Below are positions 34,697-40,402 of a stretch of DNA of 64,000 bases, piece after piece. The position numbers and the translations under genes were made by a program. The stretch is from Candidatus Eiseniibacteriota bacterium (lineage in GTDB: Bacteria > Eisenbacteria > RBG-16-71-46 > JABDJR01), in contig CAWANH010000029.1 of the NCBI GenBank assembly GCA_963783375.1, positions 416,001 through 480,000 of the forward strand, read 5' to 3'. The notes beneath the pieces are model-generated. The model worked only from the letters and a program-made list of their open reading frames with translations. It did not search any database and was not told where the DNA came from. The first letter of the stretch is position 1; each line of letters starts with the position of its first letter.

Positions 34697-34712
34697 TGGC
34701 ACGGCGGTTGCA
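34697..34712 (+). promoter_or_regulatory. sigma54 (-24/-12) promoter
   Basis: TGGCAC-GGCGG-TTGCA, exact consensus and spacing. Confidence 0.75.
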
Positions 34713-34722
34713 ACTTATACGC

Positions 34723-34888
34723 GGTGGATGACGGAACGAAACCCGGGCCCCGACAAACCGGGTTCTTCCTGCGGTGTTTGTGATAGCTCGTGTTGAGAAG
34801 TTGATCCGCCAGAGTAAACGCCATTCACCGGGCACACGGCATCCGCGGGGAACGGGAGAGGCCGGCCGCAAGGTCGGTCTCTCCTTGT
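34723..34888 (+). ncRNA. Candidate sigma54-dependent small RNA
   Basis: Starts at predicted +1; 5' end pairs with 34819-34829; internal hairpin; ends in 13-bp GCAA-tetraloop hairpin. Confidence 0.45.
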
Positions 34889-34896
34889 GCGACGGA

Positions 34897-34926
34897 TTGA
34901 CACCCCCTGATCCCGCCTGATACGTT
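34897..34926 (+). promoter_or_regulatory. sigma70 promoter for sppA
   Basis: TTGACA-N18-TACGTT with TG extension. Confidence 0.6.
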
Positions 34927-34987
34927 GCGCGTTCGCGACCCGGGCGAACGTCCCCGCGCGCCGCACTCACCGTCCTGGGTAACCTCC

Positions 34988-35869
34988 ATGGCCAGTCGGA
35001 AAACAGGTCTCTTGCTCGGGTGTCTCCTCCTCGCGGCGATGGTCGTGATTGCGGTGGCGTCCCTGTCCATCTTCGTGGCCGGACCGTGGGTGGGAGGGAG
35101 CCTCCCGCTGATGGCCGGCGGAAAGGTGGGGCTGGTGGTGCTGGAAGGGCCGATCGGGCCGTCCCGCGCCCTGGTGCGGGAGTTGGACGCCAACCGGAAC
35201 GACGCCTCCATCAAGGCGGTGGTGTTGCGGGTGAACAGTCCCGGGGGTGAAGTCGCCCCGTCGCAGGAGATCCACGACGCCGTGCTCCGGCTGTCCCGGG
35301 AGAAGCCGGTGGTGGCCTCGTTCGGCTCGGTCGCCGCCTCCGGCGGCTACTACGCGGCGATTGCCGCTGATTCCATCCTTGCCGACCCCGGCACGCTCAC
35401 CGGGAGCATCGGCGTCATCTTCTCCTATCCCACCGTGGAGCGCCTGCTGGACAAGGCGGGGATCCAGTGGCAGGTCTACAAGAGCGGGGCGCTCAAGGAC
35501 ATGGGCACCTTCACGCGGGAACCGACCGAGGAGGAGGCGGCGGTTTTCGACGGGCTGGTGATGGACGTCTACGATCAGTTCGTGACCGCGGTGGCCGAGG
35601 ACCGGGAGTTGGACCGCGACCGCGTTCTCGCCATGGCCGACGGCCGGGTCTTCACCGGCCGCCAGGCCGTCGAACTGGGGCTGGTAGACGGGATCGGCGA
35701 CCTCCACGCCGCGGTCGGCATGGCGGCACGGATGGCCGGTCTGTCCGGGGAGCCGCAGGTGGTCCGGAAAACCCGTCCCCGTATTCCCATTCTCGACGTC
35801 CTCGACCAGTTCCTGGGCGACCACGCCCGTTCCGCCTCCTCGCCCCGCCTCGAGTACCGCTGGCGCTGA
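34988..35869 (+). CDS. sppA: Signal peptide peptidase SppA (S49, short form)
   Basis: LRVNSPGG, KPVVAS, AASGGYY, TLTGSIGV, KSGALKD, ADGRVFTGRQA. Confidence 0.93.
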   Translation: MASRKTGLLLGCLLLAAMVVIAVASLSIFVAGPWVGGSLPLMAGGKVGLVVLEGPIGPSRALVRELDANRNDASIKAVVLRVNSPGGEVAPSQEIHDAVLRLSREKPVVASFGSVAASGGYYAAIAADSILADPGTLTGSIGVIFSYPTVERLLDKAGIQWQVYKSGALKDMGTFTREPTEEEAAVFDGLVMDVYDQFVTAVAEDRELDRDRVLAMADGRVFTGRQAVELGLVDGIGDLHAAVGMAARMAGLSGEPQVVRKTRPRIPILDVLDQFLGDHARSASSPRLEYRWR

Positions 35870-35970
35870 TCGCGCTCCCTCCCCACCGTTCCGGTGTTCC
35901 CGAATCTGTGGATCGGTTTATCGATTTTCCACTTTGCCGATGGTCAAACCCTCTTTCTTGGGGGTATATC

Positions 35971-36000
35971 TTGACAACCCACCGCATTTTGTGGTAGGGT
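35971..36000 (+). promoter_or_regulatory. sigma70 promoter
   Basis: TTGACA-N18-TAGGGT with TG extension, AT-rich upstream. Confidence 0.6.
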
Positions 36001-36005
36001 GCCTG

Positions 36006-36185
36006 AACGGCTTCGAGCTGGTCTGAAGCGAGGGCTTCCGCGCCATGTGCGGCGTGAGTCGGTGGCTGAAACCGGACGTCGCTGTGTTAGCTTTATACAT
36101 GCCCGTCGGCGACCGCCCTTGCAGCGGTCCCCAGGCGGCCCCGGCCCAACTTCAAACCGGAAGGGCCGGCTTGAAGCCGGTTTTT
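36006..36185 (+). ncRNA. Candidate ~180 nt structured RNA or regulatory leader (family unassigned)
   Basis: 16-bp terminal stem 36008-36023/36164-36179, internal hairpins, TTTTT at 36181-36185. Confidence 0.5.
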
Positions 36186-36363
36186 AGGGACCCGTCCCGC
36201 TGGGTCCCGGAGGTGAGGTGCCGGAGACGGTGATTGCCCCGCCCTCGCGTGGGGCTTTTCCATGGGGATGGAACTCTCCGGACGTTGCGGTGTATTTGTG
36301 GGCGATGGGCGTCCCCGGCCCGTCCCCGGTGGACACGCCATGTGGGCGGTGCGGAGGATTGAC

Positions 36364-36771
36364 ATGCCGAAGAAGGCAGTGAGGGAGCGGCGCAAGGCTC
36401 CTCGGATCGATTCGAGGCTCGCGCTGCAAGTTGAACGGGCGGTCAGAAGCAATACCGAGCGGCCGATGACCACGGAGAGCGTGAACGTCTCCAGCGGTGG
36501 CATCTGCTGCAACGTTCGTTCCTTTGTCGAGCCCCTGACCAAGGTGGGTCTGACCCTGCTACTGCCGTCCTTCGGCCGCAAGGGCAAGAAGACCCAGGTG
36601 GTTTCCTGCAACGGGGTCGTGGTGCGATGCCTGTCGTATCCTGCGGTCAGCGAGTTCGAGTTGGCCTGCGCCTTCACCGACATCAAGAAAGAGGACAAGA
36701 CCCTCATCGAGGAATACATCGGCTGGAGGCTGATGCAGGACCTCGTGGACGAGCGACTGTCCCAGCCTTGA
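36364..36771 (+). CDS. Stand-alone PilZ domain protein
   Basis: ERRKAPR (RxxxR) and NVSSGG (D/NxSxxG); GGAGG SD. Confidence 0.82.
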   Translation: MPKKAVRERRKAPRIDSRLALQVERAVRSNTERPMTTESVNVSSGGICCNVRSFVEPLTKVGLTLLLPSFGRKGKKTQVVSCNGVVVRCLSYPAVSEFELACAFTDIKKEDKTLIEEYIGWRLMQDLVDERLSQP

Positions 36772-36811: not shown

Positions 36812-37843
36812 ATGAATGCGGTCCCTCTCCGGCAAGCGCGCCTGTTCCCCGGATCCGGCCTTCGCGCCGGGATCGCCGCCGCCGCGGCGACCGCCGTGCT
36901 GCTCGCCTCGGCCGTGCCCGCGTTTGCGGTGGACAAATACGCCGCGGAATTCCTCAAGATCGGCGTAGGGGCGCGCGCCCTGGGCATGGGCGGCTCCTTC
37001 GTCTCCATGGCCGACGACGCCAGCGCCGCCTACTGGAATCCCGCCGGCCTCGTGCATCTCGAGTCCCGGGAAGCGCTGGGGATGCACGCCAGCCAGTTCG
37101 GGGGAGTGGAGGCCCATGACGTCCTCGGCGTGGTGTCCCCGATCGAGGCGGGAGGGCGCCGGGCGGCGATCGGCGTCACCGTGATTCGTCTCGCCGTGGA
37201 CGACATCAAGGTGACCAAGGACGCCAAGATCGGCGAGGATGAGAACGGAAACCCCATCATCGACCCCAATCGGATCCAGACCAAGAGCGCTTACGATCTC
37301 GCCATGCTCCTCTCCTACGCCCGGGGATTGGGTGATCACTGGGCGATGGGGGTGAATCTCAAGCTGGTCCGTCAATCCCTGGTCGGCGAGGGAGCGAGCT
37401 TCGGGATCGGGACCGACCTGGGAATCCTCTATCAGGCCAACCCCAATCTCGGGTTCGGCGTGCGTCTGGCCGACATCACGACCACCCGGCTCTACTGGGA
37501 CACCGGACGGCGGGAGACGGTGTCTCCCACCGTCACTCTGGGTGCGCACACCACCCGGGAGATCGAGTCCCTCCAGGGAAGCTTGAGCCTCGGCCTGGAC
37601 GCCGCCTTCGCTTTCGAGGGGCAGACCGGCGATCAGTTCGACAGCGGGAGCCTGTCCGGCAATCTCCTTCCCGGGGCGGAGTACTGGTTCCGTCACACCG
37701 TGGCCCTGCGCCTGGGATCCGACGGCGGCGATTTCACTGCGGGGGCGGGGGTGCGCTACAAGCGGATCGGCGCCGATTATGCCTACCTGTCCCACCCAGA
37801 GTTGGACGCGACCCACCGGGTGAGCGCACTGATCCGATTCTGA
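36812..37843 (+). CDS. PorV/PorQ family outer membrane barrel (T9SS-associated)
   Basis: FLKIGVGARALGMGG, DDASAAYWNPAGL, C-terminal THRVSALIRF. Confidence 0.8.
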   Translation: MNAVPLRQARLFPGSGLRAGIAAAAATAVLLASAVPAFAVDKYAAEFLKIGVGARALGMGGSFVSMADDASAAYWNPAGLVHLESREALGMHASQFGGVEAHDVLGVVSPIEAGGRRAAIGVTVIRLAVDDIKVTKDAKIGEDENGNPIIDPNRIQTKSAYDLAMLLSYARGLGDHWAMGVNLKLVRQSLVGEGASFGIGTDLGILYQANPNLGFGVRLADITTTRLYWDTGRRETVSPTVTLGAHTTREIESLQGSLSLGLDAAFAFEGQTGDQFDSGSLSGNLLPGAEYWFRHTVALRLGSDGGDFTAGAGVRYKRIGADYAYLSHPELDATHRVSALIRF

Positions 37844-37883: not shown

Positions 37884-39116
37884 ATGAAGCGAGTGATGGC
37901 ATTCGCCCTGGCCGGCGGCCGTACCCGCGGGCTCTCCGTCCTCTCCCAGCCCCGATCGGTCGCCGCCGTCCCCTTCGCCGGCAAGTTCCGGCTCATCGAT
38001 TTCACCCTCTCCAACTGCGTCAACTCCGAGATCTTCCACGTGGAGGTTCTGGCCCAGTACGCTCCTCTCTCGCTGGCCCAGCATCTGGGACGGGGGGAGC
38101 CGTGGGATCTGAACCGACGGGAGGGCGGGGTTCGGATCCTTCAGCCTTACGCCCGGCAGGAAGGGGCCCGGTGGTACGAGGGAACCGCCGACGCCCTGCG
38201 GCAGAACCTGGACGTGCTCGAGAACTCCGGGGCGGAGTGGGTCTTCGTGCTGTCCACGGACCTGATCTACAAGATGGACTACTCCTGGATGCACGAGCAG
38301 CACCTGGAGACCGGGGCACGGGTGACCCTGGCGGTGGGCCAGGTTCCCTACGGGGAAACCGAACACTTCGGCATGCTTCGGATCGACGGGGAAGGGAGGA
38401 TCTCCGGTTTCCAGGAGAAGCCGGAGGCCACCGACTTCGATCGGGCGTTCATGGGGGTCTATCTCTTCGACAGCGCCTTCTTGAAGCGGATTCTCCAGGA
38501 GAACGAGGACCCCAACCTGATCCTGGACATTCTGCGGCCCTATCTCGGGGACCCGGCGGTGGTCCGGGCGTACACTTTCGGCGGTTACTGGGACGACGTA
38601 GGCTCGATCCCGCGCTACTTCCGGGCCCACCAGCGACTCCTGGGGGACGACCCCGCCCCGAACCTCCACGACCCCGGCTGGCGCATCTACACCCGGAGTG
38701 AGGAGATGTCCCCCGTCCTCTTCCATGCCGGTTCCGAGGTTCAGGACAGTCACCTGAGCAACGGCGCGGTGATCGCGGGACGGGTCGAACGGTCGGTGAT
38801 CTCCCCCGGGGTCTATGTGGGCCCGGGGGCGGTGGTGCGGGACGCGATTCTCCTGAACGGAACCACGGTGGGAGCGGGAGCCACGGTGGAGCGCGCGGTG
38901 GTGGACAAGAACGTGGTGATCGGAAACGGGGCGCGGGTGGGCCGGCGGGACGCCGGCGCGGAGAGCGGAGTCCCCGAACTCATGGGGATCACCCTGGTGG
39001 GGAAGTGGGCGCAGGTCGACGAGGGGTCCGAGATCGCGGCGGGGACGCTGATTCCTCCCGGCGAGGCGATCTCCGCCCAGGCGTACCACCTTCGCATGGG
39101 GGAAGCGCGGCAGTGA
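37884..39116 (+). CDS. GlgD-like ADP-glucose pyrophosphorylase subunit
   Basis: AVPFAGKFRLIDFTLSNCVNS, WYEGTADAL, left-handed beta-helix; lacks GxGxRL/RAKP and SGDH motifs. Confidence 0.75.
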   Translation: MKRVMAFALAGGRTRGLSVLSQPRSVAAVPFAGKFRLIDFTLSNCVNSEIFHVEVLAQYAPLSLAQHLGRGEPWDLNRREGGVRILQPYARQEGARWYEGTADALRQNLDVLENSGAEWVFVLSTDLIYKMDYSWMHEQHLETGARVTLAVGQVPYGETEHFGMLRIDGEGRISGFQEKPEATDFDRAFMGVYLFDSAFLKRILQENEDPNLILDILRPYLGDPAVVRAYTFGGYWDDVGSIPRYFRAHQRLLGDDPAPNLHDPGWRIYTRSEEMSPVLFHAGSEVQDSHLSNGAVIAGRVERSVISPGVYVGPGAVVRDAILLNGTTVGAGATVERAVVDKNVVIGNGARVGRRDAGAESGVPELMGITLVGKWAQVDEGSEIAAGTLIPPGEAISAQAYHLRMGEARQ

Positions 39117-40402
39117 GCGGGGTCTATACCATGATTCTGGCCGGCGGCGTAGGAAGCCGACTCGCCGTGCTCACCGAGCAGCGGGCCAAGCCCGCCGTTC
39201 CCTTCGGCGGGAAGTTCCGGATCATCGATTTCGCCCTCTCCAACTGCGCCAACAGCGGGTTCTTCGACGTCGGTCTCCTCACCCAGTACCGTCCCATGTC
39301 CCTGATCGAGCATGTGGGAACCGGCCGGACCTGGGACCTGGACCGGAGCCTCGGGGGTCTTCAGGTGCTTCAGCCCTACCTGGAAGCGGAGTCCGGGGAC
39401 TGGTACCAGGGAACGGCGGACGCGGTCTACCGGAACCTCCTCCAGGTGACCCAGCGCGCGGTGGACGACGTGGTCATCCTTTCCGGCGATCACGTCTACG
39501 CCATGGACTATCGCCCCATGCTCGACTTTCACCGCGAGCACCGGTTTCCGGCCACGGTGGCCGTGACCCCGATTCCGCCCGAGATCACCCACCAGTTCGG
39601 GATCGTGCAGACCAATTCCCGGGGTCATATCACCGGCTTCCAGGAGAAGCCCCGGGAGGCCCGGGGGAACCTGGCCTCGATGGGAATCTACGTGTTCCGT
39701 CGCGACACCCTGATCCGGCTCCTTCAGGAATCCGCCGCCGACCCCGCCTCGAGGAACGATTTCGGGAAGGACATCTTCCCCCGGCTCATCGAGGTGGCCG
39801 ACGTGGGGGCCCACACCTTCGACGGCTACTGGCAGGACATCGGCACCGTGGAGGCGTTCTACGACGCCAACATGAAGCTCCTCGATCCCGACCACAGCCT
39901 CATTCTCTCCCACCCCTCGTGGCCGGTTCGAACGCCCAGCACCGACGCTCCTCCCGCCCGGGTGGTGGGCCGGGGACGGGTGTCGCGGAGCCTGGTGGCC
40001 AACGGGGCGGTGGTGCGGGGCCGGGTGGAAAACTCCATCCTGTTCCCCTGGGTGCGGGTGGAGGACGGAGCCGAGGTCCGGGACTCGATCCTGATGAACG
40101 AGGTGCATGTCCACCCCGGGGCCTCGGTGGTCCGGGCGGTGCTGGACAAGCGGGCCGAGGTGTTTCCCGGGGCGCGCGTGGGAGGGGAGGGCGCCGGCGT
40201 TTCCAACCTCGCCATGCCCGAGTTGCTCTGCACCGGCCTCACCGTGATGGGGAAGGACGTGGTGGTGGGGGAAGGGGTGACGGTGGGACGAAACGCCTGG
40301 GTGGGGGGGCGCCATGTGGTGGCCCCCGGCGCCGACGTTCCGGACGGCGGATACCTCGAAGGGAAGCTGCTCCGCCCCGGAGCCAAGCTCCGATCCGGCT
40401 GA
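39113..40402 (+). CDS. glgC: Glucose-1-phosphate adenylyltransferase
   Basis: [59 protein letters not shown]. Confidence 0.93.

Follow-up and report, generated by a model that had tools for sequence, protein, structure and literature searches.

A gap of 494 nt separates sppA from the gene of a single-domain PilZ protein in a Candidatus Eiseniibacteriota genome with a GC content of 69%, and the question is whether this intergenic region encodes an RNA, and if so of what kind. The window, that is the whole stretch of DNA analysed, comprises 64,000 nucleotides, and the genes listed next lie on its + strand. The gap is preceded by the S49 peptidase gene sppA (34925..35869; PF01343, E 1.5e-47; TIGR00706 above cut-off), the start of which may be an ATG near 34988. 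It is followed by the pilZ gene (36364..36771; PF07238 above cut-off), a PorV/PorQ-family gene (36812..37843; NF033709, 137 bits with a cut-off of 90) and two overlapping GlgD/GlgC-like nucleotidyltransferase genes (37884..40402, i.e. 37884-39116 and 39113-40402), whose best matches are the glgC/glgD models, both scores being slightly under the curated cut-offs. RxxxR and NxSxxG motifs are readable in the PilZ protein, which is presumably a c-di-GMP receptor. GGDEF domains are present in 5/5 genomes searched. One of them, in the host genome, is spread over two frames (G000 C17:52564-53041), possibly through a frameshift or an assembly error.

A sequence-only reading had placed in this gap an RNA of about 180 nt with mutually exclusive folds, taken to be either a divergent 6S-like RNA or a new riboswitch/attenuator. 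It had recognised no 6S, SRP, c-di-GMP riboswitch or c-di-AMP riboswitch signature. The Rfam covariance scan produced no match at the region. A permissive scan of 35800-36450 returned chance-level matches only, while the gathering-mode scan of the window gave no match at all; the latter is weak evidence, since gathering mode also missed the true 6S RNA of this genome. Neither in this region (E <= 10) nor in 12 orthologous loci (E <= 1) did the models for the c-di-GMP-I, c-di-GMP-II and c-di-AMP riboswitches find a match, and the sppA-pilZ gap of these 12 loci was likewise devoid of Rfam matches. SRP RNA, RNase P RNA and tmRNA models also had no match at the region, and their copies were found elsewhere in the genome (SRP at C29:1084073, RNase P at C29:254335, and one tmRNA detected by aragorn).

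The true 6S RNA of the genome is located between zapA and ymdB (G000 C29:533224-533404, - strand; 80 bits with RF00013), and it (L087:1725-1905) is 86% identical to the 6S RNA of a relative at the syntenic place. Fast genome searches missed it too, and a blank fast-mode result is therefore weak evidence in this genome. RF00013 matches 90 of 101 relatives; 6S-Flavo was found in 0/5 genomes. The proposed RNA does resemble 6S RNA (SsrS, RF00013) in its length of about 175 nt, its own sigma70-type promoter at the start and its long 5'-3' closing stem, and a -10-like sequence lies inside it. A second, divergent 6S RNA at 36008-36180 is nevertheless extremely improbable: no RF00013 match appeared in the scan mode that gave the true 6S 80 bits, four of the matched relatives are of the same family and carry their 6S at another locus, and the closing stem is limited to the genus. 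The fold argues in the same direction. 6S RNA is described in PMC8414754 as rod-shaped with a central loop between helical arms, whereas both the MFE and the centroid structure of 36008-36179 are multibranched, with no rod and no large central loop.

Comparison within the family was based on 18 distinct sequences, 8 of them from genomes and the other 10 from a set of 20 metagenome loci. Copies that were identical or nearly so (five), loci that lacked upstream sequence (three) and sister-family loci (two) were left out, the last two being retained for some controls. Genus-level comparisons rest on five sequences. In family f1 the promoter-like motifs described below keep their fixed spacing, while the length of the sequence between varies, with values of about 150 to 400 nt.

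Most of the individual elements described in the sequence-only reading are indeed there. TTGACA-N18-TAGGGT is present at 35971-36000, the 16-bp stem (36008-36023 with 36164-36179) pairs at 16/16 positions including three G-U pairs, it is followed by a single G and by TTTTT (36181-36185), and the local alternative hairpin at 36150-36176 pairs at 10/11 positions. Of the inner pairings, GAAG/CTTC, CGCGCC/GGCGTG and GACCGC/GCGGTC occur in the MFE structure and GTCGCT/GGCGAC in the local fold, but GGGCT/GGCCC, complementary by inspection, is in neither. The two folds exclude each other sterically; they are, however, not in balance, as the P1 transcript gives the closing stem a probability of 0.999 and the alternative hairpin 0.0. 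The proposed RNA folds moderately better than chance (MFE z = -2.72, with 2/200 shuffles as good; z from -2.0 to -2.9 on repetition), compared with -1.35 for the reverse strand and -6.0 for the genome's true 6S. When 79 genome segments that follow the same -10 motif are compared, its 16-bp helix is the sole one of at least 14 bp; 4 of the 79 have z <= -2.5. The strongest fold of the set (z = -5.9) is that of the 187 nt behind the extended -10 site at G000 C28:142272 (-).

The closing stem and inner hairpins (36008..36179) are predicted in 4/5 genus sequences, with 87% of the cells of the stem paired and a double change at 1 of its 16 pairs. For the whole genus fold 77% is paired and 0/500 shuffles do as well, the fold having been derived from one of only five rows. 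Among 17 orthologues the 5'-3' stem beats shuffles at p < 0.01 in two, both close kin; outside the genus it is not significant save in one borderline case, and family leaders there have folding z-scores between -2.0 and +0.9. In the five genus sequences no compensatory change was seen in the alternative hairpin. Better kept is a further hairpin, T1 (CCGGCT-TGA-AGCCGG plus T run, 36166..36185), which is also limited to the genus, competes with the closing stem and has 93% of its cells paired, with no double change. A switch at T1 between transcripts from P1 and from a second promoter-like site, P2, was considered and rejected: T1 has probabilities of 0.67, 0.34, 0, 0 and 0.07 across the five P2 transcripts, and is thus favoured (p > 0.5) in one of them. 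A riboswitch or attenuator built on the two named folds found no support, given the lack of compensatory change in the one and the 2/17 significance of the other. The most plausible reading of the 175-nt domain is not a switch but a stem, kept at genus level, by which the first part of the P1 transcript is closed. What had been overlooked were the promoter-like site at 36064-36093, the T1 hairpin with its TTTTT, and a conserved structure further downstream at 36218-36348.

Three promoter-like motifs at fixed spacing are supported by the comparison. P1 is a sigma70-type site (TTGACA-N18 with the extended -10 TGTG-G-TAGGGT, 35971..36000, + strand) with a GC-rich discriminator, and an extended -10 is found at its position in 18/18 complete intergenic regions, the sister family included, the -35 being weaker in two. 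P2 (GGCT-N15-TGTG-T-TAGCTT, 36064..36093, + strand) is an extended -10 site inside the proposed RNA, with an AT-rich discriminator; the pattern GGCT-N15-TGTG-N-TAnnnT is present at fixed spacing in 12/16 orthologues. Mean GC content of the discriminator is 4.8 of 6 for P1 and 2.7 of 6 for P2, in sequences that as kin are not independent. Discriminators that contrast in this way are known from promoters under opposite stringent control, to which P1 and P2 offer an analogy. The same -10 motif has 79 copies in the genome, 63 of them outside a crude coding mask covering 63% of the genome, i.e. a non-coding share of 80% compared with 51-72% for AT-rich control motifs. The idea of a sigma mimic, in which an RNA hairpin would expose the -10 of P2, was rejected, as the z of the hairpin ranged from -0.9 to +0.3 in 12/12 sequences, similar to genome controls; since folding around P2 does not exceed that of shuffles, P2 reads as a DNA element. 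In sister-family sequences a site resembling the third motif, P3, follows P1 at a distance of about 75 nt, with no terminator in 2 of the 3 sequences, and P1 would therefore serve pilZ there. No sigma54 site was seen in the sppA-pilZ leader of 21 sequences, and no conserved small ORF in the three + strand frames of the same number of sequences.

With regard to RNA structure, a structured, cis-acting leader of pilZ-porV-glgD-glgC, as the sequence-only reading had suggested, is supported, but its conserved and covarying part is 36218-36348, downstream of the 180-nt unit; the flagged stretch is likely the front half of this long leader. An alignment of 36195-36370 shows conservation of the motif GYGCYGGAG, a GCCCCGC/GTGGGGC hairpin, GGAAC, TGT, a further hairpin whose loop is C-rich, and the ribosome-binding site. 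Unconstrained RNAalifold pairs GYGCYGGAG with the sequence directly after GGAAC, which forms helix Pa (36218..36284; 5' arm 36218-36226, 3' arm 36276-36284) closing a three-way junction, and it also recovers the hairpins Pb and Pd; the MFE structure of the host sequence itself includes Pa, Pb and Pc. Pa shows double changes at 6/9 pairs (14 cells, compared with 4.3 expected), beats all slid controls and is equalled by 0/500 shuffles on four measures. Pd (36304..36324, GATGGG/CCCGTC, its C-rich loop being conserved), which lies close to where P3 transcripts are predicted to begin, has double changes at 3/6 pairs and 89.5% pairing. Among 24 conserved stacks these two rank first by covariation sum (0.68 and 0.56; the next is 0.19), whereas in an all-pairs scan of the 18 sequences, too small a set for significance at single pairs, no single base pair rose above background. 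A covarying structure in the 5' leader, such as is looked for in riboswitches, is thus provided by Pa and Pd. Taken one by one, Pa is significant in 8/18 sequences (p = 0.10 in the host genome), and its predicted probability is about 0.45 in the full P1 and P2 transcripts.

Within the junction, the terminator-like hairpin Pb (also designated T2; GCCCCGC/GTGGGGC followed by TTTT, 36236..36259), picked up by the terminator scan, is nearly invariant, with 92% of cells paired. Four T follow it in 11/18 sequences and none in 3, so not every sequence would terminate at Pb; pairing with GGAA may be the reason why the T run is kept. Pc (36258..36273, TTCCAT/ATGGAA with a GGGG loop) is less well supported, being 83-86% paired with no double change among its four core pairs. 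Downstream of Pd, a short hairpin Pe (CGCC/GGCG) and the ribosome-binding site GGAGGA (36353-36358) are aligned at 36336..36358.

Do these changes reflect RNA at all? One could hold that the region acts as DNA only, with three promoters and inverted-repeat operator half-sites, the RNA folds being by-products of 69% GC. The promoter motifs are the most conserved bases, the Pa arms are 46-53 nt apart in 17/18 sequences, and the hairpin spanning P2 is at chance level, all of which would fit. However, Pa arms pair better with the partner from their own species than across species by 3.2 kcal/mol, compared with 0.5 +/- 0.8 in 40 composition controls; the result stands with 13 less related rows, and the own-partner advantage is about zero for three other segments. 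Changes in Pa and Pd, read by eye against the pilZ tree, went via G-U intermediates on about five separate branches, which point to a + strand RNA. Moreover, the dyad CGGCT-N3-AGCCG, tried as a palindromic operator, has 11 genome copies and no excess over other spacings. We consequently regard a purely DNA-level function as distinctly unlikely.

A different possibility is that P1 and P2 make a stand-alone, trans-acting small RNA, which would measure about 175 nt if it ended at T1, as in this genus, and 160-280 nt if it ended at Pb or where Pa ends, with P3 as the main promoter of pilZ. In 4/5 genus sequences a discrete unit is indeed framed by the promoter, the closing stem and the T run, the hairpin right after P2 has double changes at 4/8 of its pairs in the genus, and Pb is nearly invariant. 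On the other hand, the 5' half shares no sequence or fold across the family, the conserved GYGCYGGAG is accounted for by its pairing in cis, and neither Hfq nor CsrA was found in the 5 genomes searched. A small RNA is in our judgement rather unlikely.

The third promoter-like motif, P3 (GGAACT-N16-GTA, 36270..36295, + strand), is of the ECF type, and its spacer coincides with the 3' arm of Pa. Its GGAAC and TGT are invariant, with no indel, in 18/18 sequences. GGAAC(C/T)-N16-GTA has 27 non-coding sites in the genome at spacing 16, compared with 7-18 at eight other spacings, and stands upstream of 3/22 sigma-factor genes. The predicted P3 thus has the GGAAC -35, the 16-nt spacer and the short -10 of an ECF-type promoter, and shares them with other loci including sigma genes; together these sites are a probable ECF regulon, judged by motif and spacing. 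The sites include G000 C29:783368, C29:1485505, C28:1443748 and about 24 others, among them those ahead of the three sigma-factor genes; an ECF sigma gene is located at C29:782726. SigE/SigH-type ECF promoters are given as GGAACN-N16-CGTT in PMC10012870, and P3 shares with the promoters as presented there the GGAAC(T/C) -35 and the 16-nt spacer, but differs from them in having TGTA in place of CGTT as its -10 and in having a spacer that doubles as a strand of a conserved RNA helix. It is likely that the same 16 nt serve both as P3 spacer and as RNA strand of Pa. In two sister-family loci (L024 and L025), inspected by eye, a simple long hairpin carries the GGAAAC of a P3-like site at its tip and the spacer as its 3' arm; it may represent the arrangement of Pa in minimal form.

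To explain these features, we favour an arrangement, with about an even chance of being correct, in which a leaky terminator stands behind two sigma70-type promoters, a junction forms on read-through and an ECF promoter provides a bypass. P1 and P2, as housekeeping-type promoters, would send RNA polymerase into the terminator-like hairpin Pb and its T run, and Pb would stop part of the transcripts and so limit the amount reaching the genes. Read-through RNA would then fold the family-conserved three-way junction. P3 would start behind Pb and bypass the hairpin under stress, its transcripts beginning just ahead of Pd and never carrying the junction. Since Pa and Pc both need sequence beyond the T run of Pb, they cannot prevent termination and form on read-through RNA only; as a first guess, the junction could serve the processing or stability of the long transcripts, or bind a protein on them. 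Sequence comparison shows the promoter-like motifs with their fixed spacing, the covariation of Pa and Pd and the near-invariance of Pb, whereas promoter activity, termination at Pb and the role of the junction are inferred.

Transcription attenuators are leaders with an intrinsic terminator ahead of the first gene, and the region resembles them in its promoters, its long leader and its GC-rich hairpin with T run. It differs in that no conserved upstream antiterminator or leader peptide was found in it, and in that Pa, by requiring sequence downstream of the T run, is not a classical antiterminator. Under the arrangement favoured here, the choice of promoter would decide whether the junction fold exists. 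It is unusual, moreover, that one 16-nt stretch should be both a predicted ECF promoter spacer and the covarying RNA strand closing over a terminator-like hairpin. A more ambitious version, in which 36218-36348 is a new ligand- or protein-sensing switch, with a terminator hairpin wrapped by a junction built from an ECF promoter spacer, we consider quite doubtful; if it were true, the c-di-GMP receptor and the glycogen genes would be under RNA gating when read from the housekeeping promoters and free of it on stress transcripts.

It is similarly improbable that the junction and Pd form a ligand-sensing aptamer, e.g. for c-di-GMP, with control of pilZ translation via Pd, Pe and the ribosome-binding site. 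The locus invites this idea, as a covarying multi-helix fold stands directly ahead of pilZ and the genome encodes GGDEF proteins, a location in common with the c-di-GMP-I/II and c-di-AMP riboswitches, and the conserved C-rich loop of Pd is not explained by the promoter. But the region has no match to any Rfam riboswitch model, the motif is single-copy in the host genome and confined to one family, and the most conserved unpaired bases are the -35 and -10 of P3. Two candidate pairings were also rejected: a GGGGA/UCCCC kissing loop is only 69% paired, and pairing of the Pd loop with the ribosome-binding site is no better within than across species (p = 0.57), i.e. without covariation. Access to the ribosome-binding site, compared between long and short transcripts, went up in 5 and down in 8 of 18 sequences, with no consistent direction.

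The distribution of the motif is narrow. Its covariance model finds all 7 family genomes searched, the same from which it was built, and outside the family it gives weak matches of 20-26 bits in 8/144 genomes. The motif at 36218-36348 has no Rfam match; it is confined to one Ca. Eisenbacteria family and absent from Rfam. The false call of a 6S RNA or riboswitch is thereby replaced by a defined RNA motif in an uncultured phylum, which appears to be a new but narrow cis-acting element with a reach of one copy and one family. Among the publications listed in our search, none links Eisenbacteria with an RNA motif; the supplements of large motif catalogues could contain this one.

The surroundings of the motif vary across the class. 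In 9/20 loci fetched, a promoter, an HU-like gene and a gene for a small basic protein of 31 aa come after sppA, and an RNase R-like gene was read ahead of pilZ in the f9 loci of the same set; these three labels are presumptive, read from the sequences themselves. In 1/20 sppA adjoins pilZ, and in 10/20 there is no sppA match within the fetched stretch. Because an HU-like gene follows sppA in other orders, P1 occupies the position of the hup promoter there. The loci of other orders with such genes between sppA and pilZ are L101-L105, L113 and L117-L119, whereas in the host genome the three genes sit elsewhere (C3:242318, C1:45802 and C1:80141). The sppA-pilZ gap of another genome (G006, locus L034) is about 150 nt longer and carries an extra TTGACC-type site with CCCCACTACATAGTG, which resembles an NrdR-type box.

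Finally, a separate element was observed 1.2 kb upstream, in the gap before sppA (34697-34890, + strand). It consists of a sigma54-type site (TGGCAC-GGCGG-TTGCA, 34697-34712) and an RNA of about 95 nt (34762-34853) followed by a terminator-like hairpin, the ends of the RNA resembling the 6S closing stem and the apical arm being absent. A model of this short 6S-like RNA matches 92/151 phylum genomes and picks up canonical 6S at 22-25 bits; conversely, RF00013 matches one copy of the short RNA at 34 bits, the apical 95 positions being absent. In the alignment 91% of cells are paired, and the folding z alone is only -0.35. A sigma54 site accompanies 37/43 copies, compared with a background of 2.5%, and rpoN is present in 5/5 genomes. 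The sigma54-driven RNA is a candidate short paralogue of 6S, and the element is phylum-wide and separate from the pilZ leader.
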